Positions 16,358-43,263 of a DNA stretch of 64,000 nucleotides are shown piece by piece. The position numbers and the translations under genes are program-made. The notes under the pieces were generated by a model that was not told the DNA's origin, made no database searches, and saw only the letters and a program-made list of their open reading frames with translations. Every line of letters begins with the position of its first letter. The first letter of the stretch is position 1. This DNA comes from Sporichthyaceae bacterium (lineage in GTDB: Bacteria > Actinomycetota > Actinomycetes > JACCUZ01): NCBI GenBank assembly GCA_031365725.1, contig JANLYQ010000072.1, forward strand, positions 16,489-80,488, in the 5' to 3' direction.

Positions 16358-19218
16358 GACCGCTGCCCCGGCCGGGCCGCGAGACCGCGCGCGAAGAACC
16401 GATCCACGACGTCCTGGGCGGCCGCGCCCGTCTCGAACTCGCAGAACCGCTGCTGGAAGTCGGCGTAGCGATCGGCCCACTGCTCCGGCCGCTCCTGCAC
16501 CTCGCGCAGCGCCTCGATCAATCCTGCGGTGTCTTCGACCACTGGGCCCGGCGCGATGTCGGGCAGGTCGAGATAGGTGCCACGCTCGTCGCGGACGTAG
16601 TCCTCGTAGTCGTAGGTGTAGAACACCATCGGCTTGCCCGTGTTGGCGAAGTCGAACATCACCGAGGAATAGTCGGTCACCAGGACGTCCGCGACGAGCA
16701 TCAGCTCGGTCACGTCGTGCACCAGCGACACGTCGGCGACGAACGGGTCGTAGCGCGCCGACAGCTTGTAGCGGTCGAGGTAGTGGGTGCGCAGCATGAG
16801 GAACGAGTCATCGCCGAGCGAACGGCGCATGAGCTCGAGGTCCATCGGCAGGTCGTACTCCTTCTGCAGCCGACGGGCCCGGTCCCGGAAGGTCGGGCAG
16901 TACAGCACCAGCCGCCGGTCGGTCGGTAGCTGTAGCTGCTGCTTCTTGGCCAGCACCCAAGCCGGGTCTGCGCCGCGCACCAGGAAATCGTTGCGGGGCA
17001 AGCCTCTACGCACCAGCTCGCCCTCGTAGCCGTAAGACGTCACGAAGGTCTCGACGAAGTACTCGCTCGGCACCAGCAACGCGCTCCAGCGCCGCATCAT
17101 CGTCTTGTGCTGCTTTCGCACCGATGCTGAGGCCCGCTCCAGCGCCGGCGAGTCGAAGCCCATCCGCTTGAGCGGAGTGCCGTGCCAGGTCTGGACGTAG
17201 GTCGTCTCACGACGCCGGTTGAACATCCGCGGCAGTCCCTGGTTGTCCACCCAGAACTCCGCTCGCGCCAGGTCGTAGAGGTAGCGCCAGCTCTCGCGCT
17301 TGACCAGACGGGCACCCTCGGGAAAGCCGCGCTTGCTGCGGGCGTAGGACCACACCGGCTGAAGGCCCAGCCGGTCCAACCCGGTAGCCACCGCCGCCTC
17401 GTAGATGTAGCGCGGGCTGTCGCTGTACTGCAGGCCCATGTGCGACTCGAACACGGCGAGACCGGGCGTGACCGGCAGCTTGCGGAACAGCCGGTAGGCC
17501 TGCTTCTTCAAGGTCGGGTTGTTGCCGATCGCGCGCTTGGACCGCCAGCGGACCGAGTTGGTGACCCGCCCCGCCAGCAACGCCGCCTGCGCGTCAGCCT
17601 CGGTGCCTCCGACGTCGGGCAGCTGACGGAACGCCAGGTTGAGCCGGACCGTGGCGAAAGCCTCGACCTGACCGCGGGCCGCACCACCGAGGCGGGCGCG
17701 CACGGTGATGGGTCGTCCCGTGATGGCGGTCGGGTCCACCGACACCGGGCTGATGTTGACCTCCTCGCCGTTGCGGATGCGCATTGCGACATCCCACACC
17801 GGGTGCAGCTGGTCGAGGCGGCCGAGCGCCGCGTCCAGGTCGATCACGGTGCGGTAGTGCAGCCGCTTGCCCTCGATCCACCAGTCGCGCACGGGCTTGG
17901 CCCGGTGCGGACCGGTCCGGGCCCGGTTGTTCAGCTCGATGGAGAGCTCGAGGTCGTCACCCGGCGTGATCCGGCCGAGCGGGATGACCACCTGGCCCTG
18001 GATGCGCACGGTGGACCCGACGAGCTCGCCGGCGGTGATGAGGTTGTGCAGGACCAGCCGGCTGAACGGCAGCCGGTGGAACCCCATCTCGGTAACGTCC
18101 ATGACGGCACGGTCGTGCTCGGTGTCGAGGTACTTGTCCGACCAGAACACCCGTCCGTCCCGCTCGACGAGGTCGGTCGAGAGCGCGAAGCCGTGCCGCA
18201 GGTAGTCGACTGTCTTGAGGGTCTCTTCCACGTCGCGACGTCTGATCATGGCGACACAGATCCGCTCGACCGGATACACGAGGTCGAGGGTCTTCTCGCT
18301 GATGGTCTCGAGGTAGTCCGCCGCAAGGTCCATGAACTTGCGCTGGTAGTCCTCGTCGCGCTCGGGCAGGTCCGACAGATAGAGCTTGAGGTCGTGCCGG
18401 ATGAACTTGAAGTCCTTGTGCACCTTCAGATCGCCCGACCCGTGCTCACGCAGGAAGTCATCCATCATCCGGTGCACGGCGATGCGGTCGCGGAAGTTCT
18501 CGAACTCGTGCCGACGCTGGGTGATCGACGCCGCGTCTGCGTCCTCCACCACCCGCCAGTAGTAGATGACGTTGGGCACGACCGCGATCACCTTGGCCTG
18601 GCAGTAGACCTTGGTGGAGAACAGCGAGTCCTCGTAGTGAATGCCTTCGGGGAAGGTGATGCCGTTCTCGCGCAGGAAGTCACGCCGGTAGATCTTGTTG
18701 GTCGACAGCGGGTCGAAGAAGAGCAACGGGTTCTCGCGGATGCCGTTGTAGGTCACCCGCCGGGTGAACAGCTCCTTGACCCAGCCGGTCTCCCGGTCCC
18801 GGGTGAGGTTGACCCGCACCACCTGACCAGCCACCACGTCCGCGCCGGTGCGCTCGGCCGCGAGCAGCATGTTCTTGCAGGCGTGCCGCTCGAACACGTC
18901 GTCGCTGTCGAGGAACATCACGTAGGGCGCCCGCGCGTGCTCGAGCCCGACGTTACGTGGCCGGCTGCAGCCACCACTGTTGCTCGGCAGCTGTACGACG
19001 GTCAGCCGGGCATCCTCGCGTGCCATGGCCTCGGCCACCGCGACCGAGTCGTCGGAGGAAGCGTCGTCGACCACCACCACCTCGAGGTTGCGCAGCGACT
19101 GGTCCAGCACCGAACGGATGGCCGAGGGCAGGTTGGCGCTGTCGTTGTAGCCGATCAGCACCACCGTGACGTCGGGGGTCGCTCGGGCGGGGATGGGCCG
19201 GGTGGGCATGTGCACCAC
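16354..19218 (-). CDS. bifunctional glycosyltransferase family 2 / CDP-glycerol glycerophosphotransferase (TagF/TagB-like) protein
   Basis: N-terminal GT2: VTVVLIGYNDSANL, VVVVDDASSDDS, YVMFLDSDDVF. C-terminal Glyphos_transf domain: VFESHMGLQYSDSPRYIYE, YVQTWHGTPLKRMG, VLVTDYSSVMFDF. Confidence 0.85.
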   Translation of the reverse strand: MVHMPTRPIPARATPDVTVVLIGYNDSANLPSAIRSVLDQSLRNLEVVVVDDASSDDSVAVAEAMAREDARLTVVQLPSNSGGCSRPRNVGLEHARAPYVMFLDSDDVFERHACKNMLLAAERTGADVVAGQVVRVNLTRDRETGWVKELFTRRVTYNGIRENPLLFFDPLSTNKIYRRDFLRENGITFPEGIHYEDSLFSTKVYCQAKVIAVVPNVIYYWRVVEDADAASITQRRHEFENFRDRIAVHRMMDDFLREHGSGDLKVHKDFKFIRHDLKLYLSDLPERDEDYQRKFMDLAADYLETISEKTLDLVYPVERICVAMIRRRDVEETLKTVDYLRHGFALSTDLVERDGRVFWSDKYLDTEHDRAVMDVTEMGFHRLPFSRLVLHNLITAGELVGSTVRIQGQVVIPLGRITPGDDLELSIELNNRARTGPHRAKPVRDWWIEGKRLHYRTVIDLDAALGRLDQLHPVWDVAMRIRNGEEVNISPVSVDPTAITGRPITVRARLGGAARGQVEAFATVRLNLAFRQLPDVGGTEADAQAALLAGRVTNSVRWRSKRAIGNNPTLKKQAYRLFRKLPVTPGLAVFESHMGLQYSDSPRYIYEAAVATGLDRLGLQPVWSYARSKRGFPEGARLVKRESWRYLYDLARAEFWVDNQGLPRMFNRRRETTYVQTWHGTPLKRMGFDSPALERASASVRKQHKTMMRRWSALLVPSEYFVETFVTSYGYEGELVRRGLPRNDFLVRGADPAWVLAKKQQLQLPTDRRLVLYCPTFRDRARRLQKEYDLPMDLELMRRSLGDDSFLMLRTHYLDRYKLSARYDPFVADVSLVHDVTELMLVADVLVTDYSSVMFDFANTGKPMVFYTYDYEDYVRDERGTYLDLPDIAPGPVVEDTAGLIEALREVQERPEQWADRYADFQQRFCEFETGAAAQDVVDRFFARGLAARPGQRS

Positions 19219-26470: not shown

Positions 26471-28126
26471 ATGACGACCAGGGTGAGCACGTCCGGACAA
26501 CCGACAGGGCCGAGCCGGCGCAGCCTGCTGCGCGCCGGGGCTGGGGGCCTGGGCGCGGTCGCCCTGACGGGGATCGGTGCCTCAGCGGCCGCACCCGCCA
26601 CGGCCGCTGCCTCGAGCGGCTGCCCGATGGGCGGGGCCGGTCACGGCGGCCCGTCAACGACCTTCGGGCGGATGTTCCCGGAGCTGCCGCCCTTCGCCAC
26701 GGACAGCCCGGCGCTACGCGAGGCTCTTCTCGCCATCGGGGCCTCCGGCGGCATGCTCGACGCCGGCGATGACCTGTTCGGTCCCAACGGCGGGCCGGTG
26801 AAGCTCATCACCGACCCTGACCTGAGCCTGGTCAACCGCAACAACCCCCACGACACCGCGGGCATGACCTTCATCGGCCAGTTCATCGACCACGACCTGA
26901 CTTTCGACGCCACGTCCCGCCTCGGCGTGGCGACCGATCCGACCACCTCACCGAACGGGCGCACGCCACGGTTCGACCTTGACTCCGTCTACGGCGCCGG
27001 CCCCGTCATGTCGCCCGAGCTGTACGCCGACAACGACCCGATCAAGCTCCGGGTGGAGTCGGGTGGTGCGTTCGAGGACCTGCCGCGACGACCCGACGGG
27101 TCGGCGGTGATCGGCGACATCCGCAACGACAGCAACCTTCTGGTGTCGGGACTGCACGCGGCATTCCTGGAGTTCCACAACCACGCGGTCGACGAGGTGC
27201 GCGTCGCCGGCGCGGACCCGATGGACACCTTCGACACCGCTCGGCGGGAGACGAGGTGGCACTACCAGTGGCTGGTGGTGAACCGCGTGCTGTCGAACTT
27301 CGTCGGGACGCCGATGGTCGATGCGGTGCTGGCGCGGGCTGCGCGACGCGGCTCCGCCAGGAGCCGGGGCGCGGCGATCCCGGTCGAGTTCTCGGGTGCC
27401 GCCTACCGGTTCGGCCACAGCATGGTGCGGCCGTCGTACCGGGCGAACCTGGCCGGCGACAACGGATCGCCGTTCTTCGGCCTCATCTTCGACTCGCGCG
27501 TGACCGTGCCGGACGGGCAGCACCCGGCCACCGATCCGGGCGACCTCCGCGGCGGTTTCCGGGCGGCGCGTCGGTTCGTCGGCTGGCAGACGTTCTTCGA
27601 CTTCGGTGGCACGTTCAGCGCGGCAACCCGTCCCAACAAGACCATCGACACGGTGCTCTCGACACCCCTGTTCACCTTGCCCACGAGTGCCATCGCCCAC
27701 GTGCCGGGTTCGCCGGGCCCGCTCGCCCTGCCGCAGCGGACTCTGCTGCGGCACCTCACCTGGTCACTGCCCTCGGGTCAGGCAGTGGCCCGTCAGCTCG
27801 ATGCACCCGTGCTGCACCGGGCCGATCTCGCGGACCTCGCGGCGTTCGGTCCGGTGGCCGGCCGCGGCGTCGGGCTCGACCGGTCGACCCCGCTGTGGTT
27901 CTACGTGCTGCGCGAGGCCGACCTCGCGACCGGTGGCCAGTTCCTCGGTCCGGTGGGCGGCCGCATCGTGGCCGAGACGATGCTGAGCCTGCTGCTCGCC
28001 GACCCGGCAAGCTATCTCTGCGCGCAGCCGGGCTGGCAGCCGCACCTGGGCGGTACTGGCTCGACGTATGAGATCGCCGACTTCCTGCGCTGGGCCGGGG
28101 TCGACCCGACTAGCCGCGGCCAGTGA
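26471..28126 (+). CDS. Tat-secreted animal-heme-peroxidase family protein (peroxidasin/cyclooxygenase-like bacterial peroxidase)
   Basis: Twin-arginine signal SRRSLLRAGAGGLGAVAL; An_peroxidase motif FIGQFIDHDLTF and distal/proximal His regions. GAAGGGGGA SD upstream of ATG 26471. Confidence 0.8.
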   Translation: MTTRVSTSGQPTGPSRRSLLRAGAGGLGAVALTGIGASAAAPATAAASSGCPMGGAGHGGPSTTFGRMFPELPPFATDSPALREALLAIGASGGMLDAGDDLFGPNGGPVKLITDPDLSLVNRNNPHDTAGMTFIGQFIDHDLTFDATSRLGVATDPTTSPNGRTPRFDLDSVYGAGPVMSPELYADNDPIKLRVESGGAFEDLPRRPDGSAVIGDIRNDSNLLVSGLHAAFLEFHNHAVDEVRVAGADPMDTFDTARRETRWHYQWLVVNRVLSNFVGTPMVDAVLARAARRGSARSRGAAIPVEFSGAAYRFGHSMVRPSYRANLAGDNGSPFFGLIFDSRVTVPDGQHPATDPGDLRGGFRAARRFVGWQTFFDFGGTFSAATRPNKTIDTVLSTPLFTLPTSAIAHVPGSPGPLALPQRTLLRHLTWSLPSGQAVARQLDAPVLHRADLADLAAFGPVAGRGVGLDRSTPLWFYVLREADLATGGQFLGPVGGRIVAETMLSLLLADPASYLCAQPGWQPHLGGTGSTYEIADFLRWAGVDPTSRGQ

Positions 28127-29188: not shown

Positions 29189-30853
29189 GTGCCTCCCCGG
29201 CCGGTCGCGCGCGCCGACCTAGCATCGCTCGCGTCGGTGTCCCAGACGTCCCGCTCTGCCCCACCCGCGTCGGAAGGTCTGCGCTTGTCCTCGCCCACGC
29301 TGCCTGCGCAGCTGAACCCGCGCGGACCCGACGCCGCTCCCCGGGCCCCCAGGACCGGTCGGCGCCCACCGACACGCCTGAGCCGCATCGCCCGCCAGCT
29401 GCTGACCGCGGTCGCTCTGGTCGCGGCCGCTGCCGTGGTGGTGGCGTCGGTGTCGGGCTACGGCCTGCTCACCTGGTCCAGCCGCTCGATCCAGCGGGTC
29501 GACGCGTTCGCCGGGCTGACGCACCGCCCGGCGCCTTCGGCGGCCGGCTCCACGACGTACCTCCTGGTGGGTTCGGACGGGCGCACCGGCATGACCACGG
29601 CAGACATGAAACGCCTGCATGTCGGCACCGAGGCGACCGCCGGTGGTCGTCGGGCCGACACGATGCTGCTCGTGCACGTGTCGGCGCGGCACGGCACGGT
29701 CGATGCGGTGAGCCTGCCGAGGGACTCCTACGTCACGATCCCGGCGCATACCGGTGTCAACGGTGCGCAGGTGCCCGAGCGTCGCAACAAGCTCAACGCG
29801 GCCTACGCGTTCGGCGGCCCATCGCTGACGGTGGCCACCGTCGAGCGCACCACGGGCGTGCGGGTCGACCACTACCTCGAGGTCGACTTCCTCGGCTTCG
29901 TCCGACTGGTCGACTCGGTCGGCGGGGTCGATGTCTGCAGTCCCACACCGATGCGGGACCGCAAGGCCGGGCTGCGACTGCCCGCCGGCGTCACTCATGT
30001 CAACGGCGAGACGGGCCTGTCCTACGTGCGGGCGCGACACCTCGATGGACGTGCCGACCTGGGAAGAGTCGAGCGCCAGCAACGGTTCTTGGCCGCGATG
30101 GTGAGTCGCGCGACCAGCACGGACGTGCTGCTCGACCCGCGCGCGCTGGTGCGCTTCCTCAACGCGGCGCTCGCGTCCGTGCGCGCCGACCCGGGTCTGA
30201 CCGAGAGCGAGCTCGTGCGGTTGGGCACCCGGCTGCGTCACGTGTCCGGCGGTGACGTGCGCTTCCGGACAGTGCCGGTGGCCAACCCGTCGATGACGGT
30301 CGCCGGCGAGGGTTCGGTGGCGCTGTGGGACACCCCGGCCGCCGACGCCGTCTTCGCGTCGATGCGCGAGGACAGCGCTCGCGCCACGACGACTGCTGCT
30401 GCGGCGCACTCGCGGCCCACGGTGCCGCCGGCGCAGATCCGGCTGCAGGTCTTCAACGGCACCGCCCACCCCGGCCTGGGCTCCATCGCGTCGGCCGACC
30501 TCGCCGCGCGCGGCTTCGAGACCACCGGGCCCGCGCAGAACTGGCGCAGCACCGACACCACGCAGACGATCATCCGCTTCGACACCCGGTGGACCGAGAG
30601 CATCAAGACGGTCGCCGCCTCGTTGCCCGGGTCGCGACTCGTGGCCGTCGCCGGACTGGGGCCGACCATGCAGGTGGTCATCGGATCGTCGTACGCCGGT
30701 GCGAAGGCGGTCACGGTGTCAGCTCCCGAGCTGGCCGGTGACGGCTCGGCCGGAGTGACCGCCTCGGCGGCCGGCGGATCCGGAGCCGCGACTCGTTCGG
30801 CTGGCGGCGCGACTGCCGGCGTCCGCACTGCCGGCGACCACGTCTGCAGCTGA
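29189..30853 (+). CDS. LCP family protein (second paralogue)
   Basis: TM LLTAVALVAAAAVVVASV; LCP core YLLVGSDGRTG...RADTMLLVHV...AVSLPRDSYVTIP...KLNAAYAFGG; LytR_C-like C-terminus (IRLQVFNGTAHPGLGSIASADLAARGF). Exact start uncertain. Confidence 0.8.
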   Translation: MPPRPVARADLASLASVSQTSRSAPPASEGLRLSSPTLPAQLNPRGPDAAPRAPRTGRRPPTRLSRIARQLLTAVALVAAAAVVVASVSGYGLLTWSSRSIQRVDAFAGLTHRPAPSAAGSTTYLLVGSDGRTGMTTADMKRLHVGTEATAGGRRADTMLLVHVSARHGTVDAVSLPRDSYVTIPAHTGVNGAQVPERRNKLNAAYAFGGPSLTVATVERTTGVRVDHYLEVDFLGFVRLVDSVGGVDVCSPTPMRDRKAGLRLPAGVTHVNGETGLSYVRARHLDGRADLGRVERQQRFLAAMVSRATSTDVLLDPRALVRFLNAALASVRADPGLTESELVRLGTRLRHVSGGDVRFRTVPVANPSMTVAGEGSVALWDTPAADAVFASMREDSARATTTAAAAHSRPTVPPAQIRLQVFNGTAHPGLGSIASADLAARGFETTGPAQNWRSTDTTQTIIRFDTRWTESIKTVAASLPGSRLVAVAGLGPTMQVVIGSSYAGAKAVTVSAPELAGDGSAGVTASAAGGSGAATRSAGGATAGVRTAGDHVCS

Positions 30854-30951: not shown

Positions 30952-32220
30952 ATGAGGCGAGATCGGCCATCGAAGGGCGGGTACGGTCGTTCGATGAGCG
31001 GATCCGGCAGGTGGCCCGAGGGCTGGACCCGTGATCACCCTGCTGGCCAGCCGGCCCTGCCAGCCGCAGCGCCCAGACCGCCGCAGCCGCTGGACGAGAC
31101 CCAGGTCCTCCCGCCGCACCTGAGCCCCCGTGGGCCTGCCGGTCGCCGCCAGCCGGGTGCCGTGCCGCCCGCCCGGCCGCCGCGCACCCAGTGGTCCGCA
31201 TCCCAGCCGGCCGCATCCCAGCCGTCCGCGCCCCAGTCGTCCGCGCCCCAGTCGTCCGCATCCCAGTCGCCGCACCAGCGACGTCCCGGCCGAGCGCGCC
31301 GCTGGGCCTTCGGCATCCTCGCCACCCTGCTGCTCGTGGTGGTCGTCGTGGTCGGCACGCTGACCTACTTCGTGTCCCGCATCGCGAAGGTCGACGCCGT
31401 GCGCGACTACGCCGGCCGACCCGCGGCAGGCGCCGGCACCAACTGGCTGGTCGTCGGCTCGGACAGTCGCGAGGGCCTCACCGACCAGCAGGTCAAGACC
31501 CTGCACCTCGGTCGCGTCGCCGGTCGGCGTACGGACACGATCATCCTGCTGCACCGCCCCAGCAGCGGAGCACCGACGTTGGTGAGCCTGCCGCGCGACT
31601 CCTACGTCGCGATCCCCGGGCACGGGCGCGACAAGCTCAACGCGGCTTACGCCTTCGGTGGCGCGCCCCTGCTGGTGCAGACCGTCGAGCAGGCGACCGG
31701 GCTGCGCATCGAGCACTACACCGAGATCGGCTTCGGCGGTTTCGTCGGCACCACCGATGCGGTCGGCGGAGTGCAGCTGTGTCCGCGCCGGCGCATCGAC
31801 GACCACAAGAGCGGCCTGCACGTGGCCAAGGGCTGCCAGCAGATGGACGGTGGCACCGCTCTGGCCTACGTGCGGGCGCGCTACTTCGACCCGCAGGGCG
31901 ACCTCGGTCGCGTCAAGCGGCAACAAGAGTTCCTCGGCGCCGTCTTTGCCAAGGCGACGAGTCCTACGACGCTGGTCAACCCGTTCCGGATCATCTCCCT
32001 CGGCGACGCAGCCACCACGGCGATGACCGTGGACAACAACGACGGAGTCGTCGCGTTGGTTCGCTTCGCCCTGACCATGCGGGGCGTGGCCGGCGGCAGC
32101 GGTCGTCGTACGACGGTGCCGGTCGCGAACATCAACTACCGCACCCCAACCGGTGCGTCAGCGGTGCGGTGGGAACGGACCAAGGCACTCGCCCTCTTCC
32201 AGGGGTTGCGCGCGCGCTGA
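30952..32220 (+). CDS. LCP family protein (third paralogue) with repeat-encoded Ser/Gln/Pro-rich cytoplasmic N-terminus
   Basis: TM WAFGILATLLLVVVVVVGTL; LCP core NWLVVGSDSREG...RTDTIILLHR...LVSLPRDSYVAIP...KLNAAYAFGG. N-terminal SQPAASQPSAPQSSAPQSSASQSP encoded by a 15-nt tandem repeat. Confidence 0.8.
   Translation: MRRDRPSKGGYGRSMSGSGRWPEGWTRDHPAGQPALPAAAPRPPQPLDETQVLPPHLSPRGPAGRRQPGAVPPARPPRTQWSASQPAASQPSAPQSSAPQSSASQSPHQRRPGRARRWAFGILATLLLVVVVVVGTLTYFVSRIAKVDAVRDYAGRPAAGAGTNWLVVGSDSREGLTDQQVKTLHLGRVAGRRTDTIILLHRPSSGAPTLVSLPRDSYVAIPGHGRDKLNAAYAFGGAPLLVQTVEQATGLRIEHYTEIGFGGFVGTTDAVGGVQLCPRRRIDDHKSGLHVAKGCQQMDGGTALAYVRARYFDPQGDLGRVKRQQEFLGAVFAKATSPTTLVNPFRIISLGDAATTAMTVDNNDGVVALVRFALTMRGVAGGSGRRTTVPVANINYRTPTGASAVRWERTKALALFQGLRAR
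31186..31270. repeat. 15-nt tandem repeat, ~5.7 copies (unit CCCAGYCGKCCGCRY), inside the LCP-3 N-terminal coding region
   Basis: cccagtggtccgcat / cccagccggccgcat / cccagccgtccgcgc / cccagtcgtccgcgc / cccagtcgtccgcat / cccagtcgcc read directly. Confidence 0.75.
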
Positions 32221-33875: not shown

Positions 33876-34721
33876 TCAGGCACCCGGCGACAGCCGCAGC
33901 GGCAGCGGTGGCACCACCACGATCGGGCAGTCGCAGAGCAACGCGAGCTGACCACTCGTGGAGCCGGCGAGCAGCCGCGACACTGCGTGGTGGCCGTGCG
34001 AACCGAGCACCAGCAGCTCGGCTCCGACCGCGTCGGCGCTCAAGGCGTCCAGCGGTGCGCCGCGCTCCACCCGCAGCCGCATCAGTGGCCGCTGCGCGGT
34101 GTCGAGGGTGTCCTCCACCCACCGGCGAAGGCGGAGGGCAGCCGTCGCATCGTGCCGGTCGTGGGCGTGGCGCCCGACGTCGGCCGCGTCGGCCGCGGTG
34201 GGCTGCCAGGCCTGGGTGACCGCAAGCTCCCGGTCCTGGGCGACCGCCTCGGCGCAGGCCCAGCGCAGGGCGGCTGCCGACCCGTCCGAGAGGTCCACGC
34301 CCACGACGACGGGACCACCCGACGGTGGACTGCCCGGCCCCTCCTCGGGCACGACCACCACCGGACTGGTGCCCTGCCGCCGGAGCTGGACCAGCACTGC
34401 TGGCCGCCGGTCCCAGAAGTGGTGCCGGCCACCACCGACCACGAGCAGCGCGTCGTCGTGGCCGAGGTCGAGCAGCACCTGCGCGGGTTCGCCTTGGCGC
34501 CCGAGCACGCGCACCCGGGGCAGGACCACGCTGTCCACGTCGAGGTCGGCAGCAAGTGCGGCGACCGTGTCGGGGTCGAGCACGGCGTCGACCGACACCG
34601 GGTCGGCCCAGGCATGCACGAGGCTGACAGGTTCCCCCGAGCGTGCCGCCCGCGCCAACGCCCACCGGAGCGCCGCGCGCGAGTGCACGCCGCCGGCGGC
34701 TCCCACGACGATCTCGGTCAC
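33876..34721 (-). CDS. universal stress protein, tandem UspA domains
   Basis: Two USP halves (MTEIVVGAAGG..., GPVVVGVDLSDGS...), C-terminal ATP-binding G-x2-G-x9-G-S-like LVLGSHGHHAVSRLLAGSTS. Confidence 0.8.
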   Translation of the reverse strand: MTEIVVGAAGGVHSRAALRWALARAARSGEPVSLVHAWADPVSVDAVLDPDTVAALAADLDVDSVVLPRVRVLGRQGEPAQVLLDLGHDDALLVVGGGRHHFWDRRPAVLVQLRRQGTSPVVVVPEEGPGSPPSGGPVVVGVDLSDGSAAALRWACAEAVAQDRELAVTQAWQPTAADAADVGRHAHDRHDATAALRLRRWVEDTLDTAQRPLMRLRVERGAPLDALSADAVGAELLVLGSHGHHAVSRLLAGSTSGQLALLCDCPIVVVPPLPLRLSPGA

Positions 34722-34753
34722 TCTCGCTCCTCAGCTGGCCCCCGCACCTGGTT

Positions 34754-35083
34754 CTAGACCTCCGGGATCGGCCGCGCAAGGCCCCCCTCGCCCTCGGGAC
34801 CGACGTCGCCTTCCCGCGGCGCTGCACGGATGGTGCCGAAGGCCGCCACCAGCTCCCGCTGCACCTGCTGGCTCAAGGTGTCGAGCGGGACGTGACCCAG
34901 CAGCTCGATGGTGCGGCGCATCTGGGCGAGGTAGAGGTCGCAGCCACCGCACAGCCGTAGGTGTGCCTCGAGCTCGGTCCGGGTCACCTCCTCCAGGGCA
35001 CCCTCGAGATAGTCGGTCACCAGCTCGACCACCTGTTGGCAACGCGTGGAGTCGACGCGCAGGTCCCCATCGTTGTCACTCAT
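34754..35083 (-). CDS. zinc-binding anti-sigma factor (ZAS family, RsrA-like, no TM segment)
   Basis: MSDNDGDLRVDSTRCQQVVELVTDYLEG...HLRLCGGCDLY gives C-x25-H-x3-C-x2-C as in RsrA. ATG at 35081-35083 overlaps the sigma gene TGA (35080-35082) as ATGA. The longer track ORF start is Arg-rich and overlaps the sigma gene. Confidence 0.7.
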   Translation of the reverse strand: MSDNDGDLRVDSTRCQQVVELVTDYLEGALEEVTRTELEAHLRLCGGCDLYLAQMRRTIELLGHVPLDTLSQQVQRELVAAFGTIRAAPREGDVGPEGEGGLARPIPEV

Positions 35084-36567
35084 GCGCTTTCCTCGCTCCC
35101 CCGGTAGTAGTCCGCCAGCGCCTCGCGCAGTCGGGCCCGACCGCGGTGCAGCAGCACGCGCTGGTTGGCGGGGGTGAGTCCGAGCAGGTCGCACACCTCC
35201 TGGGAGCTCAGGCCGTGCACGTCGCGCAGCGACACGACACGGCTCTGCTGCTCAGGGAGGTCGACGAGCGCCTCCGCCACCAGCCGCCGGGTCTCGGAGT
35301 CAACCGCCGCCTGTTCAGGTCCGGGCAGCCAGCGGCCGGGCTGCCCGGTTGAGCTCCAGTGACCGGCGAACTGGTCTCCGGCGCCGGCAAATCGCCGCGG
35401 GTCGACGGTCGGCGCCGCACTGGTCGGGTCGTCACCGACCGCAAGACCAGAGACCGGCACCACCCGCGCCTCACGCACTCCACGCGTCTTGGCCAGGTTG
35501 ACCACGATGCTGAAGACCCAGGTGCGGAGAGTCGAGCGACCTTCGAACCCGTCCAACCCGCGCAGCACCGCCAGCCACGCCTCCTGGACGATCTCCTCAC
35601 TGGATGCGGCGGTCGACACATGGGCGCGAGCAAGGCGAAGCATGGCCGGAGACCAGTCGGCGACCAGGTCGGCGAAGGCGCGCTCGTCGCCGGCGCGCAG
35701 CCGATGCACCGGCCCGTCGTCCCCGGTCGGGGCACGTGGGTCAGCCGGGTCAGCCGGGTCAGCCGGGTCAGGCGCGCCCGCCACCAGCACCGTCGCGTCC
35801 GCGTCGTCCGGGCTCACGATGTACGCCGGTAGGCCGAGCTCGCGGGCTGCTGCCACCGCGGCGTCTGCCTGCCCCGCGGCGATCTCCACGACGAGCCATC
35901 CTGCCGGAGCCAGCCATGGGCCAGCCTGCGCGAGCACACGGTGCACGACGTCCAGGCCGTCAGCACCACCGTCCAGCGCAAGACGCGACTCGTGCGAGCG
36001 AGCCTCGAGGGGCAGCAGCTCGATCTGTCCGGTCGGCACGTAGGGCGGGCTCGCCACCACGATGTCGACCCGCCCGCGCAACCCCGGCGGCAGCGCGGCG
36101 ACCAGGTCGCCCTGCAGGGCCACCCCACCGACCGGTGCGAGGTTGACCGTCGCGCACCGCACGGCGACAGGATCGAGGTCGACGGCGTACAGCTCGACGG
36201 CGCGGGGTTCCAACGCGTGCAGCACGGCCAGGCCGAGAGCGCCCGAGCCGCAGCACAGGTCAACGGCCAGGACCGGTCGCTGCGGTGCACCGGCGCCGAG
36301 CAACCTCACGACCTGCGTGACGACCAGCTCGCTCCGCCGCCGCGGCACGAAGACCCCGCGCTGGACGTGGACCCGCAGCCCGGCGAATGCCGCCCAGCCG
36401 ACCACCTGCTCCAGCGGCACCCCGGCGACCCGGCGCTCGACCATTGCGGCCAGCTCCGCCGACGACGCCGCGGACTCGATCAGCAGCAGCGCCTCCTCCT
36501 CCGCGAAGACGCAACCGGCGGTCCGCAACCCCGCGGTCACCTCCGCGATCACGGCACTCGACAGCAC
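35080..36567 (-). CDS. in-frame fusion: HemK/PrmC-like N5-glutamine-type methyltransferase domain + (ADP)n linker + ECF (sigma-70 family, SigR-like) sigma factor
   Basis: N-terminus: GVPLEQVVGWAAFAGLRVHVQRGVFVPRRRSELVV, DLCCGSGALGLAV (motif I), VASPPYVP (NPPY-type). Linker PADPADPADP. C-terminus: sigma region 2 EEIVQEAWLAVLRGLDGFEGRSTLRTWVFSIVVNLAKTRGVRE and region 4 SRVVSLRDVHGLSSQEVCDLLGLTPANQRVLLHRGRARL. No stop codon between the two domains. Confidence 0.65.
   Translation of the reverse strand: MLSSAVIAEVTAGLRTAGCVFAEEEALLLIESAASSAELAAMVERRVAGVPLEQVVGWAAFAGLRVHVQRGVFVPRRRSELVVTQVVRLLGAGAPQRPVLAVDLCCGSGALGLAVLHALEPRAVELYAVDLDPVAVRCATVNLAPVGGVALQGDLVAALPPGLRGRVDIVVASPPYVPTGQIELLPLEARSHESRLALDGGADGLDVVHRVLAQAGPWLAPAGWLVVEIAAGQADAAVAAARELGLPAYIVSPDDADATVLVAGAPDPADPADPADPRAPTGDDGPVHRLRAGDERAFADLVADWSPAMLRLARAHVSTAASSEEIVQEAWLAVLRGLDGFEGRSTLRTWVFSIVVNLAKTRGVREARVVPVSGLAVGDDPTSAAPTVDPRRFAGAGDQFAGHWSSTGQPGRWLPGPEQAAVDSETRRLVAEALVDLPEQQSRVVSLRDVHGLSSQEVCDLLGLTPANQRVLLHRGRARLREALADYYRGSEESA
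35738..35773. repeat. 9-nt tandem repeat (GGGTCAGCC x ~4) encoding the ADP-repeat linker between the methyltransferase and sigma domains
   Basis: gggtcagcc gggtcagcc gggtcagcc gggtcagg on the + strand (antisense to the gene). Confidence 0.75.
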
Positions 36568-36667
36568 GGGAGGGAGCCTTCCTTACGGAGCCGTAAGACA
36601 TGACGGTGTAACGGCGGGCGGTGACCGGAGGACAACACGACATCGACGAGACAGTCCTTGGAGCAGC

Positions 36668-37174
36668 ATGCACCCCGACCTCGTGCCCGGCAGCACCTTC
36701 CCCGACCTCGAGCTGCCCGACCACAGCGGCATCGCGCGCACCCTCATCGAGCTCGCGGAGGGCGACCCCCTCGTGCTGACCTTCTTCCGCGGCTGGTGGT
36801 GTCCCAAGGAGCAGACGTTCTTCCGCGGCCTGACCCGACTCCAGGACGAGATGGAGGTGGCATACGCGCGGATCGTGTCCGTGAGCATCGACGACCCGAC
36901 CGTGTCGGCTGCTTTCCGGGCCGGGCTGGGGGCGCGCTGGACCTTCCTGTCCGATACCGAGCGCAGCTACCTCGAGCCGCTCGGTCTGCTCGAGACCACG
37001 GACACCGTCCACCGGCCCTACGCACCCGCGACGTTCGTCCTGGCGCCGGACCTGACCGTGCATGCGGTCTACAACGGGTACTGGTTCTGGGGGCGACCCA
37101 CCCTCGATGACCTGCGTCACGACCTGCGCGCGGTGACCCGCACCCTGCGCCCGGACTGGGACGTGCCTGCGTGA
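36668..37174 (+). CDS. redoxin / peroxiredoxin-like thioredoxin-fold protein
   Basis: MHPDLVPGSTFPDLELPDHSG...PLVLTFFRGWWCPKEQTFFRGL (W-C-P active-site context of AhpC/TSA-redoxin family). Divergent from the sigma-fusion gene. Confidence 0.7.
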   Translation: MHPDLVPGSTFPDLELPDHSGIARTLIELAEGDPLVLTFFRGWWCPKEQTFFRGLTRLQDEMEVAYARIVSVSIDDPTVSAAFRAGLGARWTFLSDTERSYLEPLGLLETTDTVHRPYAPATFVLAPDLTVHAVYNGYWFWGRPTLDDLRHDLRAVTRTLRPDWDVPA

Positions 37175-37731
37175 GCTGGTGCTGGTTGGCCCTGCTGACC
37201 GGTGCGGACGCCACCGCTGCCCACGGCGGCGCTAAGGCACCGAGCCTGGCCGCTGCTGCGGTCAGTGATGTGGCGGGAAAGCCGGTGGGGGTGCTTGCGG
37301 CGTGGCCGTCAGGAGCCAAGCCGGTTGCCGCGGCCGTGCGAGCGGACGCGCGGATCGTGGACCCCGAGGGTGGGTCTGCCTGGGTGTCGCTGGTGCTGCT
37401 GGCTCGCGACCGCTCGCCGCTGTTCGACGATCCTGCTGTCTCCGCAGCGCTGCGCCGGGTCCTTGCCGGGCCACCACCGGATGCCGTGAGCACGCTGGTG
37501 CGCGACTCGTCGCACATCGCGGGTGCGTTGACAGTCCGTCGATCGCAGCCGGCTCTGCTACGCGACGACCCGTTCCGTGCCGTTGGCCCGGCGCGGGTGT
37601 TGCTGGTGGCCGCCGGACTGCTCGGGACCATGGCGCCGGTGCCCGGTCCGGTGACCCAGCGCTATGGCGGCCAACCCTGGCCGGCGGCCGGCTTCCCGGT
37701 CCCGCCGGAAGCACGAGTCACGCGACCGTAG
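37171..37731 (+). CDS. hypothetical protein
   Basis: GTG at 37171 overlaps the redoxin TGA (GTGA). Codon usage consistent with coding, no recognisable domain, Ala-rich. Confidence 0.3.
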   Translation: MSWCWLALLTGADATAAHGGAKAPSLAAAAVSDVAGKPVGVLAAWPSGAKPVAAAVRADARIVDPEGGSAWVSLVLLARDRSPLFDDPAVSAALRRVLAGPPPDAVSTLVRDSSHIAGALTVRRSQPALLRDDPFRAVGPARVLLVAAGLLGTMAPVPGPVTQRYGGQPWPAAGFPVPPEARVTRP

Positions 37732-37771
37732 CGCTGCGCCTGACTCGTGGGACAGTCGCCGCGAAGGCAGG

Positions 37772-39202
37772 ATGGAACCCATGGGAGAGGTTGACCAGAA
37801 GATGAGCGATCAGACCGAGTACGACGTCCTGGTGATCGGCGGCGGACCGGCCGGTGAGAACGCCGCCGGACGGTGCGCCGCCGGCGGGCTGTCGGTCGTC
37901 CTGGTCGAGCGCGAGCTGGTCGGGGGTGAGTGCTCCTACTGGGGCTGCATCCCCAGCAAGACGCTGATCCGCCCCGGCGACGTCCTTGCCGCAGCTCGTC
38001 GGGTTCCTGGTGCCGCGGAGGCCGTCACCGGGCCGATCGACGTCGCAGCCGCGCTCGCCCAGCGGGACTACATGACCAGCAGCTGGTCCGACGCCGGACA
38101 GCTGCCGTGGCTCGCCGACAACGACATCGCCTTCGTCCGGGGACACGCTCGCCTCGTCGGCAACCGCGAGGTCGAGGTGTCCGGCAGTGACGGCACCCGG
38201 CGGCGACTCTCCGCCCGCCGCGCTGTCGTCGTGGCGACCGGCACCAGGTCGGCTTTGCCGCCCGTGCCCGGCCTTGCCGAGGCACAGCCGTGGGACAACC
38301 GTGGCGCCACCGAGGTGAAGGAGATCCCACGACGATTCGTGGTCATCGGTGGCGGACCGGTGGGGGCCGAGCTGGCGCAGGCCTTTCGCCGGCTCGGCAG
38401 CGAGTCGGTGACCGTCCTCGAGGCCGGGCCGCGGCTGTTGTCCCGGGAGGAGCCGTTCGCCGGCGAGGAGGTGCGGGTCGCGCTCGAAGCTGAAGGGATC
38501 ACCGTCGTGGTCGGCGCGTCGATCGCGTCGGTGGCTCGCGAGGGTACAGACGGACCGGTGACCGTGACGATGGCCGACGGCAGCACCCAGGTGGGCGATG
38601 CGCTGCTCGTCGCCGCCGGCCGACGCCCGACCACCGGCGACCTGGGCGTCGAGAGCGTCGGGCTGGTACCCGGCAAAGTGATTGAGGTCGACGACCAGCT
38701 TCGCGCGACCGGCGTACCCGGTGGATGGCTCTATGCCGTGGGTGATGTCAACGGGCTCGCACCGTTGACCCACATGGGGAAGTACCAAGCTCGCCTGGTC
38801 GGTGACGTCATCCTCGGCAAGGACGTGCGCGACACCTCGAGCACGGCTGCGGTGACCCGGGTGTCGTTCACCGACCCGCAGGTGGCCGCGGTCGGGCTGA
38901 CGGAGGCGCAGGCCCGCGAGAAGGGCATCGACGTGCGGGTCGTGAGCGTCGGCACCGGCAGCGTCGCCGGGGCCTCCACCCTCGGCAACGGCATCAGCGG
39001 GACGAGCCAGATCGTGGTGGATGAGACCCGCCGGGTGCTGGTCGGCGCCACGTTCACCGGGCCGGGTGTGCAGGAGCTGCTGCACTCGGCCACCGTGGCG
39101 ATCGTCGGCGAGGTCACGGTGGACCGGCTCTGGCATGCGGTGCCGGCCTTCCCGACGGTGAGCGAGGTATGGCTGCGACTGCTCGAGGCCTATGGACTCT
39201 GA
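37772..39202 (+). CDS. FAD-dependent pyridine nucleotide-disulfide oxidoreductase (class I flavoprotein disulfide reductase; mycothione/lipoamide-reductase-like)
   Basis: YDVLVIGGGPAGENAA (FAD), redox-active GGECSYWGCIPSK, NAD(P) site FVVIGGGPVGAELAQ, C-terminal dimerisation domain with H...PTVSE. ATG 37772 with AAGGCAGG SD; ATG 37802 is an alternative. Confidence 0.85.
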   Translation: MEPMGEVDQKMSDQTEYDVLVIGGGPAGENAAGRCAAGGLSVVLVERELVGGECSYWGCIPSKTLIRPGDVLAAARRVPGAAEAVTGPIDVAAALAQRDYMTSSWSDAGQLPWLADNDIAFVRGHARLVGNREVEVSGSDGTRRRLSARRAVVVATGTRSALPPVPGLAEAQPWDNRGATEVKEIPRRFVVIGGGPVGAELAQAFRRLGSESVTVLEAGPRLLSREEPFAGEEVRVALEAEGITVVVGASIASVAREGTDGPVTVTMADGSTQVGDALLVAAGRRPTTGDLGVESVGLVPGKVIEVDDQLRATGVPGGWLYAVGDVNGLAPLTHMGKYQARLVGDVILGKDVRDTSSTAAVTRVSFTDPQVAAVGLTEAQAREKGIDVRVVSVGTGSVAGASTLGNGISGTSQIVVDETRRVLVGATFTGPGVQELLHSATVAIVGEVTVDRLWHAVPAFPTVSEVWLRLLEAYGL

Positions 39203-39211
39203 GCGACGCCG

Positions 39212-40384
39212 ATGCCGCCGACGACGCTGGACAACCTCGTCATCGTGGCCGTGGTGGGAGCACTGGCGCCCCTGGCGCTGGGATTCCTCCCGTGGCTGCG
39301 GGTGCCCTCGGCAGTGGTCGAGCTCGTTGCTGGCGTCGTGCTCGGACCGGCGGTGCTCGGCTGGGTGCACATCGACCAACCGGTGCAGGTCCTCAGCCTG
39401 ATCGGCCTGGCGTTCCTGCTGTTCCTGGCAGGTCTCGAGATCGACGTGCGGCGGCTGCGCGGAGCACTCCTACGATCGGCAGCTCTCGGCTATCTGCTCA
39501 GCCTGGCGGTCGGTGCGCCGATCGCTGTGGGGCTCGCCGCGTTGCACTGGGTGAGCTCCCCCATGCTCGTCGCCATCGCCTTGTCGGCGACCTCGCTCGG
39601 GCTGGTGGTCCCGGTGCTGAAGGACGCCGGTCAGACCGACAGCACCGCTGGGCGGCTGGCGATCCTCAGCGCCACGGTGGCCGACTTCGCCGCGATCGTG
39701 TTGCTGTCATTGCTGTTCTCGGCATCGGGGGGCAGCCCGGCGGGGCGGCTCTCGCTCCTGGCGGTGTTCCTGATCCTGGTGGTGGCGACCGGAGCAGCGC
39801 TGGCAAAGCTCGGCCGGGGAATGCGGTTGGGCGAGGTACTGGTCCGGCTGCAGGACACCACGGCCGCCATCCGCGTGCGCTTTGCCGTGGTGCTGCTGCT
39901 CGGCTTCGCCGCCTTGGCGACACGGGTCGGCCTCGAAAGCATCCTGGGCGCGTTCCTTGCCGGGGTCCTCGTGTCCGTGCTCGACAGCGACATGTCGAGC
40001 CACCCGACGTTCAGGGTCAAGCTCGAGGCCATCGGATTCGGATTCGTCGTGCCAGTCTTCTTCGTTGCGAGCGGTGCCCGGTTGGACCTGCAGGGCCTCC
40101 TCGACCAGCCTTCGGCGTTGCTGCGGGTCCCCGTCTTCGTGCTGGCGCTACTCGCGGTCCGCGGCCTGCCGGCACTGCTGTCGTGGCGCATGCTGGGTCG
40201 GCGACGGACCGTGGCAGTAGCGCTGCTGCAGGCGACGTCCCTGCCGTTCATCGTCGCGGCGGTGCAGATCGGCATCGAGCTGCACCAGATCACCCCGATC
40301 ACCGGCGCGGCGATGGTGACCGCCGGTCTGGCCTCGGTGCTGGTGTTCCCTCCTGCCGCCCTCAGGCTGCTGCGCGATCCGTAG
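39212..40384 (+). CDS. cation:proton antiporter (CPA1/CPA2 Na+/H+ exchanger family)
   Basis: 12-13 TM helices, Na_H_exchanger features VELVAGVVLGPAVLGW, LLFLAGLEID. Confidence 0.85.
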   Translation: MPPTTLDNLVIVAVVGALAPLALGFLPWLRVPSAVVELVAGVVLGPAVLGWVHIDQPVQVLSLIGLAFLLFLAGLEIDVRRLRGALLRSAALGYLLSLAVGAPIAVGLAALHWVSSPMLVAIALSATSLGLVVPVLKDAGQTDSTAGRLAILSATVADFAAIVLLSLLFSASGGSPAGRLSLLAVFLILVVATGAALAKLGRGMRLGEVLVRLQDTTAAIRVRFAVVLLLGFAALATRVGLESILGAFLAGVLVSVLDSDMSSHPTFRVKLEAIGFGFVVPVFFVASGARLDLQGLLDQPSALLRVPVFVLALLAVRGLPALLSWRMLGRRRTVAVALLQATSLPFIVAAVQIGIELHQITPITGAAMVTAGLASVLVFPPAALRLLRDP

Positions 40385-41756: not shown

Positions 41757-42379
41757 CGCAGGAACCACGACACGAGGTCGGCGCCGACGTGCGCCACCGC
41801 CGGCGCAGCCCACGAGCCGGCGTGCACCCGCAGCCCGCCGAGGACCACGCCGACAGCAAGGTCGAGGGGCAGCGCCGACCAGCCGTAGAGCGGCAGGTGC
41901 AGCAACGCGAAAGCCGCCGCACCCACGACGACTGCGACGCCTGGTCCCGCGGTGCGAGCGACGGCGTCGTGCAACGCACCCCGCAGGAACGCCTCCTCGG
42001 CGGTGGCGACGACTGCGACCACCAGCGCCCACAACAGAAATCCCTGGGTAGAGGTCGACACGACCAGGCCGCGGGCGCTGACGTGCGCGAGAACGGCCGG
42101 TACGCAGATCAGCGCACCTCCCGCTGCCCCCGCGACGAGGACCTGGCGGGAGACACGCGGTCGCCGGGTGCCGGCGGCGAGGACGAGGAGCACGAGAGCA
42201 ACCGCGAACACCAGTCCGGCCGGCATCGAGCGCGCGACATCCGGGCCACCCACCAGCGCTCGAAGCAGGACGGCTGCGGTGAATCCAGCCAGCAGAACCA
42301 GGATCCCGGCGCGATCGGGTGCAGCACGGCGAACCCTGTGGGCGCTGCGGGCGGGAAGGACCGTGGTGGTGGAGGTCAC
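41753..42379 (-). CDS. CPBP family intramembrane endopeptidase (second copy)
   Basis: EEAFLRGALHD (EExxxR), FALLH, HVGADL motifs. GTG start at 42377-42379 overlaps the upstream TGA (GTGA). The track's Arg-rich N-terminal extension was trimmed. Confidence 0.65.
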   Translation of the reverse strand: MTSTTTVLPARSAHRVRRAAPDRAGILVLLAGFTAAVLLRALVGGPDVARSMPAGLVFAVALVLLVLAAGTRRPRVSRQVLVAGAAGGALICVPAVLAHVSARGLVVSTSTQGFLLWALVVAVVATAEEAFLRGALHDAVARTAGPGVAVVVGAAAFALLHLPLYGWSALPLDLAVGVVLGGLRVHAGSWAAPAVAHVGADLVSWFLR

Positions 42380-43263
42380 GGCTGCTCGGCATCGTCGGCA
42401 TCGTCGGCATCGTCGGCGGTCTCGTCCTCGTCGTCTCCTGCCGACCGGCGTACGACGAGGACGACGGCCGCCAGGACGAGGACCACGAGCGCCAGCAGGC
42501 CGCCCCACAGCAGACCCGAGCGACCTCCACCGGACGCCGAGGACGTCGACCCCGTCGCCTCGACCGCGAGGGCGTAGTCACCCGCTGCGGCGAAGGTCGC
42601 GGCCCAGATGTCGTTACCGGCCTTGGTCGTCTTGAGTCGCTGCCACGGCTTGCCGGGCGCCGGGCGGTAGTGCATCCCCTCGCCGGGGGTCAGGGTCGGT
42701 GCCCGTAGGTAGATGACGGCCTCTTTCGCCTTGGCGGTGACAGTGACCGGCCCGCTCGGCGCGGCGAGAGTGACGCGATAGACGTTGCCGTCGATGGTGG
42801 TGCCGGTTGGCTCCTCGGTGGGGGCCAGCGGGGTCACGGTCACGGTGACGGGCCCGGCAGCTGCGGCAAGCGCGCCCTGCGGGACGCCCAGGCTGACCTG
42901 CGGCCCGAACTCGGGCGAGACCAGCGAGAGGTAGGCAGCTGTGACGCCCGAGGCGAGCTCAGCCTTCGCGGCGACCGTGATCGGTCGCACCGTGGTCGGC
43001 GTGCCGTCGGGCGGTGCGACGTAGCGGTACGGCTCGTCGGGCAGTCCCACGCCGTCATAGAGCGGCACCGGGTGGGGCGACACCAGCCAGCCAAGGGCAA
43101 CAACCACCGCGGTGGCCAGCCAGAACCGCCAGGCGCAAAACCGGTCAGGGGAAGCCGCTGCACGCGGTGGCCTGGTCACGCCCACAGCATCCCAGTCGCA
43201 CCCGAGCGCACGAACGAGCCCGCTGATGTTTACCTTCCGGCCACCTTGACGCCACCGCTGCAC
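42376..43263 (-). CDS. hypothetical bitopic membrane protein: N-terminal signal-anchor, extracellular beta-rich domain, C-terminal TM and acidic tail (DDEDETADDADDADDAEQP)
   Basis: WRFWLATAVVVALGWLV and LLWGGLLALVVLVLAAVVLVV helices; tail encoded by a 9-nt repeat. Start uncertain (GTG at 43263). Confidence 0.45.
   Translation of the reverse strand: MQRWRQGGRKVNISGLVRALGCDWDAVGVTRPPRAAASPDRFCAWRFWLATAVVVALGWLVSPHPVPLYDGVGLPDEPYRYVAPPDGTPTTVRPITVAAKAELASGVTAAYLSLVSPEFGPQVSLGVPQGALAAAAGPVTVTVTPLAPTEEPTGTTIDGNVYRVTLAAPSGPVTVTAKAKEAVIYLRAPTLTPGEGMHYRPAPGKPWQRLKTTKAGNDIWAATFAAAGDYALAVEATGSTSSASGGGRSGLLWGGLLALVVLVLAAVVLVVRRSAGDDEDETADDADDADDAEQP
42386..42420. repeat. 9-nt tandem repeat (TCGGCATCG x ~3.8) encoding the DDADDADDA tail
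   Basis: tcggcatcg tcggcatcg tcggcatcg tcggcggtc read on the + strand. Confidence 0.7.

Follow-up and report, generated by a model that had tools for sequence, protein, structure and literature searches.

An apparent lineage-specific fusion of a PrmC-related methyltransferase to an ECF sigma factor in a Sporichthyaceae bacterium

In the 64,000-nucleotide stretch of DNA analysed here (the window, positions 16,489 to 80,488 of contig JANLYQ010000072.1 of the Sporichthyaceae bacterium assembly GCA_031365725.1), a single open reading frame (ORF) on the reverse strand encodes a methyltransferase, a (PAD)n linker and an extracytoplasmic function (ECF) sigma factor, and overlaps the gene of a zinc-associated anti-sigma (ZAS) factor. 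This architecture is new and corresponds to a lineage-specific, one-off fusion; as it is a singleton that is not conserved, a new class of sigma regulation does not follow and is not established. The explanation that we favour, and hold to be likely, is that a lineage-specific rearrangement fused the methyltransferase to the sigma factor, the sigma switch having remained ordinary and the methyltransferase probably being a passenger.

A methyltransferase and an ECF sigma factor in one frame

The original prediction, made from the letters of the window, had described a single 495-codon frame joining a complete HemK-like methyltransferase (with motif I, and motif IV as SPPY) to a complete sigma region 2 and region 4 through a linker made by a 9-nt tandem repeat, followed by an anti-sigma gene overlapping the sigma stop as ATGA. 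All of these sequence-level descriptions were found to be correct on re-examination. The frame is free of stops from 35080 to 36567 (reverse strand, as are all features of this section) and its 495-amino-acid product, with a computed molecular mass of about 51.7 kDa, is matched in both halves by Pfam and NCBIfam models. In this window of ~72 % G+C, the G+C content of the ORF is 0.67–1.00 at third and 0.37–0.70 at second codon positions over both domains and the linker, which is the pattern of a real gene across the whole ORF, the third-position signal being continuous. The GTG start codon (36567–36565) is preceded, 9 nt upstream, by a Shine-Dalgarno-like AAGGAAGG (36577–36584) read from the sequence. 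A consensus scan for promoters and terminators from 34600 to 36800 found no match. Two single-nucleotide polymorphisms of the population fall inside the ORF, both synonymous and too few for a selection test.

The methyltransferase domain (35770–36540, residues 10–266) belongs to the TIGR03704 family. Its residues 10–263 match the NCBIfam model TIGR03704 ('PrmC_rel_meth', in full putative protein N(5)-glutamine methyltransferase, PrmC-related) at model positions 1–250/251 with 301 bits, above the cutoff of 248.8. The domain has the conserved class I S-adenosylmethionine (SAM) motif I of PrmC/HemK proteins and TIGR03704 members, a motif IV in variant form and a full-length family match, and its closest solved structures are PrmC/HemK proteins; it differs from PrmC itself in scoring under the cutoff of the PrmC equivalog TIGR03534 (157 bits vs 199.1). 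Column conservation among 206 homologues places the SAM-binding motif I, VDLCCGSGALG, at residues 102–112 (36232–36264) and motif IV, SPPY, at residues 173–176 (36040–36051). The latter can be specified as a minority variant of the N[AVT]PY of the family: position 173 is N in 177 of the 206 homologues and S in 15, while P175 and Y176 are invariant. Among the near-invariant positions (at least 95 % conserved), 52 of 53 are retained. The aligned homologues, without exception (206/206), carry no sigma domain and end a median of 8 residues past the last conserved strand, whereas the window methyltransferase continues into the sigma factor.

The sigma half comprises region 2 (35482–35667, residues 301–362; PF04542 Sigma70_r2, E = 1e-10) and region 4 (35128–35286, residues 428–480; PF08281 Sigma70_r4_2, E = 9.8e-12), and scores 79.5 bits with TIGR02937 'sigma70-ECF' (cutoff 42.9). 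No Sigma70_r3 or r1 match was obtained with Pfam on the fusion protein. With regions 2 and 4 and an adjoining cognate anti-sigma, the sigma half is an ECF (group 4) factor. It retains 43 of the 44 positions conserved in at least 90 % of sequences, and its regions 2 and 4 are separated by a long linker with a PTVDPxRF...HW motif. The ZAS anti-sigma gene (34754–35083) encodes 109 amino acids matching PF13490 zf-HC2 (E = 5e-10), its ATG (35083–35081) overlapping the sigma TGA (35082–35080). The predicted zinc ligands are C15 (35039–35041) and H41-x3-C45-x2-C48 (34940–34963), and the maximum Kyte-Doolittle 19-residue mean of 0.52 indicates a protein without a membrane segment. Nothing suggests decay of either domain of the fusion; equally, nothing shows selection for it.

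The two halves are joined through a perfect 9-nt tandem repeat (35738–35771) detected by Tandem Repeats Finder, whose unit on the coding strand is CTGACCCGG and which spans 34 nt with 3.8 copies and 100 % matches. It encodes PADPADPADP (coding-strand junction GCG CCT GAC CCG GCT GAC CCG GCT GAC CCG GCT GAC CCA CGT), its site is the breakpoint of the fusion and its motif occurs once in the window. The same population was found at 99.6–100 % identity in independent assemblies, namely Logan contigs of SRR20217206, SRR20217216, SRR20217217 and SRR23617286 and the ENA assemblies ERZ28573512 and ERZ27315223. Logan contigs are assembled at k = 31 (PMC12424806), and four of them end within the array, after 30 periodic nt in L087 (SRR20217217) and L083 (SRR20217206) and after 25 nt in L088 and L084 (both SRR20217216). 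We compared these ends with a k = 31 de Bruijn graph simulation of repeat alleles, in which a lone 3.8-copy allele assembles through the array, admixture of a 2.8-copy allele causes a break at 25/25 and any allele of at least 4.8 copies breaks at 30/30. The linker repeat thus seems to be length-polymorphic, with at least three allele lengths, as the original prediction had thought possible. Since the array is entered and left in a fixed phase, every allele measures 34 + 9n nt and stays in frame. A second perfect 9-nt repeat (42386–42417, TCGGCATCG x3.6) encodes an (ADD)n stretch in the acidic C-terminal tail of ORF 42376–43263(-), and L087 ends exactly 30 periodic nt into this array, with the same k-1 signature as in the fusion linker. 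The source genome therefore appears to carry several length-polymorphic in-frame 9-nt repeats, and length variation would be a habit of this genome and not special to the fusion gene.

Distribution and origin of the fusion

When 5.8 billion protein clusters were searched, the fusion protein itself came first (1058 bits, a singleton cluster from one NCBI contig of 93,685 bp), followed only by single-domain proteins, at 284 bits or less, which are methyltransferases of ~275 amino acids or sigma factors of 273–305 amino acids as called. An exhaustive HMMER pass over 1.84 billion representatives gave a best score of 254 bits, and the best 150 matches each cover one half only. A fused relative at even 50 % identity would outscore every match of both searches other than the protein itself. 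The exact 495-amino-acid product has no record in the gene-position index, and a 24-nt flank pattern searched in JGI metagenome contigs for a second spanning contig gave one unrelated chance match (L092). Around 80 methyltransferase homologues (at most 60 % identical) in reference genomes, no sigma or anti-sigma homologue lies within 8 kb, and the gene neighbours in the window have nothing in common with those 80 loci except one CAAX protease match. These loci, together with those of the relatives described below, rule out a conserved adjacency of methyltransferase and sigma genes. As for the original prediction, its statement that no ECF sigma with an N-terminal methyltransferase had been described agrees with our protein searches and with the ECF sigma literature consulted, in which no such architecture was encountered, while conservation of the fusion in orthologues, which it had raised, is not observed. 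As judged from these searches, the fusion is unique to one lineage and does not qualify as a conserved extension.

The nearest relatives were found via the disulfide reductase encoded nearby (74–78 % identity). In L093, L094 and L095/L096, the sigma and anti-sigma genes are flanked by a second zf-HC2 gene on the anti-sigma side and by a GH15/TREH_N glycosidase gene on the sigma side; beyond the latter comes a divergent operon encoding a redoxin, a 168-amino-acid protein, EamA, the disulfide reductase and a Na+/H+ exchanger. The L094 locus has, past the anti-sigma genes, a LytR gene with 79 % identity to window gene 30952–32220. The sigma/anti-sigma pairing is also seen in L001, L093, L094 and L096, and the window anti-sigma is 57–69 % identical to those of the syntenic relatives. 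The syntenic sigma factors are 63–65 % identical to the sigma half of the fusion; they are free-standing proteins of 239–242 amino acids with ATG starts and GGAGG 6–7 nt upstream, and no methyltransferase homologue was found in their loci. The position of the GH15 gene is taken in the window by the methyltransferase. The comparison indicates that the ancestral state is that of separate genes and, with the 80 reference loci, that the methyltransferase is foreign to this place in the genome.

Alignments locate the breakpoint. The tail of the orthologues, ...PAPRAPTRDDADLVSRLR, aligns to ...DPRAPTGDDGPVHRLR in the window, and the N-terminus of the L094 sigma, MQSRAPETPLVVTPESSELPAPRAPTRDDADLVSRLRGGDE, aligns with ...DPADPADPADPRAPTGDDGPVHRLRAGDE from PRAPT on, so that PRAPTGDDGP (35710–35739(-), residues 277–286) is a remnant of the native sigma N-terminal tail, aligning with PRAPTRDDAD at L094 residues 22–31. 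On the other side, methyltransferase homology extends to P266, the family ending in ...GTRP and the window domain in ...AGAP. The breakpoint therefore falls between residues 266 and 277, in the tandem repeat. Compared with its orthologues, the window sigma has lost its ribosome-binding site, its ATG and about 21 N-terminal codons, along with the upstream region that carries a TAGGCT/TACGCT -10-like element in the relatives. We also considered the linker as former intergenic DNA, given that A or T is the last base in 6 of its 13 codons, compared with 15 % overall; this reading is weakened by the fact that these codons are copies of one unit and that PRAPTGDDGP aligns with the native tail of the orthologues. 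As to the other side of the sigma gene, the relatives carry two consecutive zf-HC2 genes downstream of it (L093 4822–5324; L094 4729–5357; L096 2730–3325). The window has one, followed by genes for a universal stress protein (USP), a CAAX protease and a glyoxalase, which indicates that the downstream side of the locus was remodelled too.

We thus propose that a rearrangement brought a complete TIGR03704 methyltransferase gene immediately upstream of an ECF sigma gene and into its reading frame, displacing the GH15 glycosidase gene and deleting the sigma ribosome-binding site, start and about 21 codons. With the sigma start lost, translation from the methyltransferase GTG and its AAGGAAGG would yield one polypeptide of ~52 kDa, predicted to be active as a sigma factor, in which two intact domains would be held by a flexible acidic Pro/Ala/Asp linker composed of the remnant of the sigma tail and of a 9-nt repeat that expands and contracts in frame. 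The sigma module would work as an ordinary cytoplasmic switch, sequestered by its translationally coupled ZAS anti-sigma until a cytoplasmic signal, possibly thiol-oxidative, frees it, and its targets would probably include the redoxin-disulfide reductase operon. The methyltransferase would most likely be a passenger ('two proteins on a string') rather than a module evolved for regulation: as the fusion is a singleton, it is most simply read as recent and possibly neutral, with a passenger enzyme carried on a floppy linker.

The fusion may, however, have two products, a free sigma of ~23–25 kDa being made besides or instead of the 52-kDa protein, either by initiation at GTG260, GTG262 or GTG287 or by BldN-like cleavage of the linker, with sigma function unchanged. 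In-frame GTG codons do occur at these three residues, and initiation at 260 or 262 would produce a tail of 27–29 residues, which lies within the span seen in free-standing homologues. In addition, the linker, rich in Pro and Asp, is likely exposed, and pro-sigma BldN offers a precedent. Yet no convincing Shine-Dalgarno sequence precedes any of the three codons, a simple scan found no promoter-like site inside the ORF, and GTG260 and GTG262 encode conserved methyltransferase residues. GTG287, which the original prediction had put forward as an internal start (VHRLRAGDE), has to be abandoned: it encodes the conserved Val of LVxRLR, a start there would truncate region 2.1, and it would leave 2 residues before RLRAGDE, against at least 11, and typically 13–30, in 45 free-standing homologues. 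Overall, we regard this alternative as rather unlikely.

A second alternative is an evolved regulatory fusion, in which the methyltransferase would be a functional N-terminal module that methylates the sigma, the anti-sigma or RNA polymerase, or gates the sigma, with the (PAD)n linker tuning the coupling. Regulatory extensions are indeed an established principle among ECF sigmas. The N-terminal ones described in the reviews consulted are few and none is enzymatic: BldN (ECF121), SigC (ECF36s4) and sigma-R' (ECF12s1). As in the window, they add polypeptide before sigma region 2, and BldN and sigma-R' also keep a cognate anti-sigma. However, these extensions are short, non-enzymatic and conserved in their subgroups, with shown roles (cleavage, inhibition of DNA contact, instability), whereas the window extension is a complete 266-residue enzyme domain restricted to one lineage and absent from orthologues. 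ECF41, ECF42 and other groups likewise combine a sigma factor with an extra domain through fusion with a neighbouring gene; their fusions are C-terminal, define conserved groups, replace the anti-sigma and regulate the sigma, unlike the present one, which is N-terminal and a singleton, and keeps its anti-sigma. The integrity of both domains, the absence of a start proper to the sigma (which makes the fusion obligatory), the frame kept in all inferred repeat alleles and the occurrence of the population in several metagenomes would all suit a regulatory fusion. On the other hand, database-wide protein searches gave no second example, the orthologous sigmas stand free in four related lineages with no methyltransferase nearby, and the methyltransferase homologues never adjoin sigma genes in the 80 reference loci. 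In addition, the translated sigma domain and anti-sigma are devoid of the GGQ motif, the known PrmC target, and the second acidic in-frame repeat with the same signature makes such repeats a habit of the genome. Taken together, these observations make a regulatory fusion improbable. Only a very slim chance can be given to the fusion being selected and functional, in which case it would be the first ECF sigma with an N-terminal enzymatic domain, coupled via a contingency-like, length-variable (PAD)n tether, and would connect a stress regulon under ZAS control with protein methylation.

Several considerations weigh against the passenger explanation that we prefer. The sigma part of the fusion protein might lack activity or stability, or internal initiation might supply a free sigma. 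Among the long N-terminal extensions known in ECF sigmas, that of BldN is removed and that of SigC is inhibitory, so that a 28-kDa domain might impair the sigma. The proposed regulon and redox sensing are deduced from the gene neighbourhood and the zinc motif only. The fusion is known in one lineage with about 0.1 % population diversity, too little to measure selection on it. Finally, only the source contig spans the repeat, all other assemblies breaking inside it, and the join is thus that of one assembly plus synteny.

Should the 52-kDa protein be produced and function as a sigma, it would amount to a natural experiment: an ECF sigma would be seen to accept a large folded domain at its N-terminus while under anti-sigma control, which bears on the origin of ECF regulatory extensions by gene fusion and on the engineering of ECF-based switches. 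The fusion would also have been caught at birth, with sister lineages still showing the ancestral state and the breakpoint occupied by a hypervariable in-frame repeat.

Authenticity of the join

At the DNA level, we consider it very probable that the fusion is real. Both of its flanks, up to and into the array, are recovered in independent assemblies at 99.6–100 % identity (SRR20217206, SRR20217216, SRR20217217, ERZ28573512 and ERZ27315223). On the methyltransferase side, L087 and L088 extend from the redoxin operon across the methyltransferase and enter the repeat; on the other side, L083 and L084 extend from the repeat across the sigma, anti-sigma and USP genes. In the relatives, the two sides of the junction likewise lie next to each other, which makes a chimeric join very unlikely; a join at a dispersed repeat is ruled out by the uniqueness of the repeat in the window and by synteny on both sides. 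The possibility of a 1-nt error was also considered, as the linker repeat contains 4 TGA codons in the +2 frame and an extra base before the first of them would end the methyltransferase at ...VLVAGAP*, where its homologues end. This is ruled out by L087 and L088, which come from different runs and share an identical GCGCCTGACCC at the critical site, without a 1-nt indel, and by the downstream part having neither a start codon nor a ribosome-binding site of its own. That the genes are separate in the real genome, the single frame being the product of an indel or of a repeat that was collapsed or wrongly joined, is therefore highly unlikely, even though the junction is the very repeat at which all other assemblies break and metagenome-assembled genomes (MAGs) do yield false fusions (L095 vs L096), since both flanks bear the same, otherwise unique, repeat, copy-number errors preserve the frame and the 34-nt array is presumably shorter than the k-mers or reads usual for a 94-kb contig.

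The false fusion just mentioned concerns one of the syntenic relatives. In L095, a 292-amino-acid product (3001–3879) combines the sigma and zf-HC2 parts and the GH15 is truncated (428 amino acids), while L096, from the same organism, has a separate sigma (241 amino acids) and anti-sigma (100 amino acids) at 3023–4047 and a full GH15 (609 amino acids). The L095 sigma/zf-HC2 'fusion' is probably an artefact of frameshift errors. More generally, short coding tandem repeats break k = 31 assemblies, and 'fusions' in MAGs need cross-assembly checks of this kind.

Gene neighbourhood and comparison with SigR-RsrA

On the forward strand, an operon diverges from the fusion gene (36668–40384, defined from Pfam and the gene calls on L087). 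It encodes an AhpC/TSA redoxin (36668–37174), a 186-amino-acid protein (37171–37731), a flavoprotein (pyridine-nucleotide) disulfide reductase with its dimerisation domain (37781–39202), these two enzymes being assigned by Pfam, and a Na+/H+ exchanger (39212–40384). The operon is collinear and 72–80 % identical in L093, L094, L095/L096 and L097, and this conserved position in at least four lineages suggests a functional link between the sigma/anti-sigma pair and the redoxin operon. Downstream of the anti-sigma, at a distance of 32 nt, lies a tandem-domain USP gene (33876–34721(-); PF00582, E = 5e-27), which is probably on the same transcript; at this position it is specific to the window, the loci of the relatives lacking it. 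The neighbours named by the original prediction (redoxin, flavoprotein disulfide reductase and USP) were thus recovered by Pfam.

The divergent intergenic region (36568–36667) that separates the fusion gene from the redoxin operon contains a palindrome, CTTACGGAGCCGTAAG, at 36582–36597 and a GTAACG at 36608–36613. At the equivalent place, L093 (about 8020–8040) and L094 (about 8045–8065) have a perfect palindrome, CGTTACGCGTAACG, which contains GTAACG. These motifs might serve the divergent operons as an operator or as a pair of -35 elements. A search for an ECF-type promoter common to the redoxin operon and the sigma gene retrieved only the GTAACG/palindrome as conserved, from 3 sequences, which are too few to define a promoter. 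The GGAAT of the SigR-type promoter (GGAAT-N18-GTT) is absent from both strands of 36568–36667.

From these neighbours and the zinc site, the original prediction had proposed a SigR-like thiol-redox regulon with an 'RsrA-type' anti-sigma. Much of the resemblance to SigR-RsrA (ECF12) stands: the anti-sigma is a soluble ZAS protein with the HxxxCxxC of the C...H-x3-C-x2-C site and no transmembrane segment, the two genes are translationally coupled and thiol-redox genes lie nearby in synteny conserved over four lineages. The Cys-His spacing of the window anti-sigma (C15-H41, 26 residues) is also that of RsrA (C11-H37). Nevertheless, many ZAS proteins are not redox sensors, and membership of the SigR/RsrA pair itself is contradicted. 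The anti-sigma scores 23 bits with the RsrA equivalog TIGR03988, vs a cutoff of 62.5. The SigR structure (PDB 5fgm) matches sigma region 4 only, with 29.8 bits, compared with 61 bits for E. coli sigma-E, and no SigH/SigR model is found among the 25 best NCBIfam matches. Lastly, the window sigma has a long linker between regions 2 and 4 and an intergenic region without GGAAT-N18-GTT. On sequence grounds, therefore, the sigma and anti-sigma are not SigR/RsrA orthologues; redox sensing by the anti-sigma and control of the redoxin operon nonetheless remain our working proposal.

Paralogous sigma + zf-HC2 pairs were encountered in related contigs (L001 5495–6675 and 8835–9772; L095/L096 14525–15510), where they adjoin a DUF4331 gene. 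Their sigma is 46 % identical to that of the window, which suggests that the sigma/anti-sigma family was duplicated within the clade.

A conserved acyl-CoA carboxylase beta subunit encoded in the window finds its best matches, at 86–91 % identity, in metagenomic contigs and in MAGs labelled 'Actinomycetes bacterium' or 'Sporichthyaceae bacterium', so that the source is an uncultured actinomycete to which no sequenced isolate is close. Elsewhere in the window, a cell-envelope glycopolymer cluster (10674–32220) includes three LytR_cpsA_psr-type genes, of which 10674–12137 is confirmed by Pfam, and 29189–30853 and 30952–32220 were judged from their sequence and from the 79 % match with LytR of L094. 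The cluster further encodes a PMT_2 glycosyltransferase (13649–15181) and a fusion of a GT2 with a CDP-glycerol glycerophosphotransferase (16354–19218). The Pro/Ser/Gln-rich N-terminal region of the LytR_cpsA_psr gene 30952–32220(+) contains a 15/45-nt tandem repeat (31172–31274). A 551-amino-acid ORF (26471–28126) contains an animal haem peroxidase domain (PF03098, E = 4e-13), a domain uncommon in actinobacteria.

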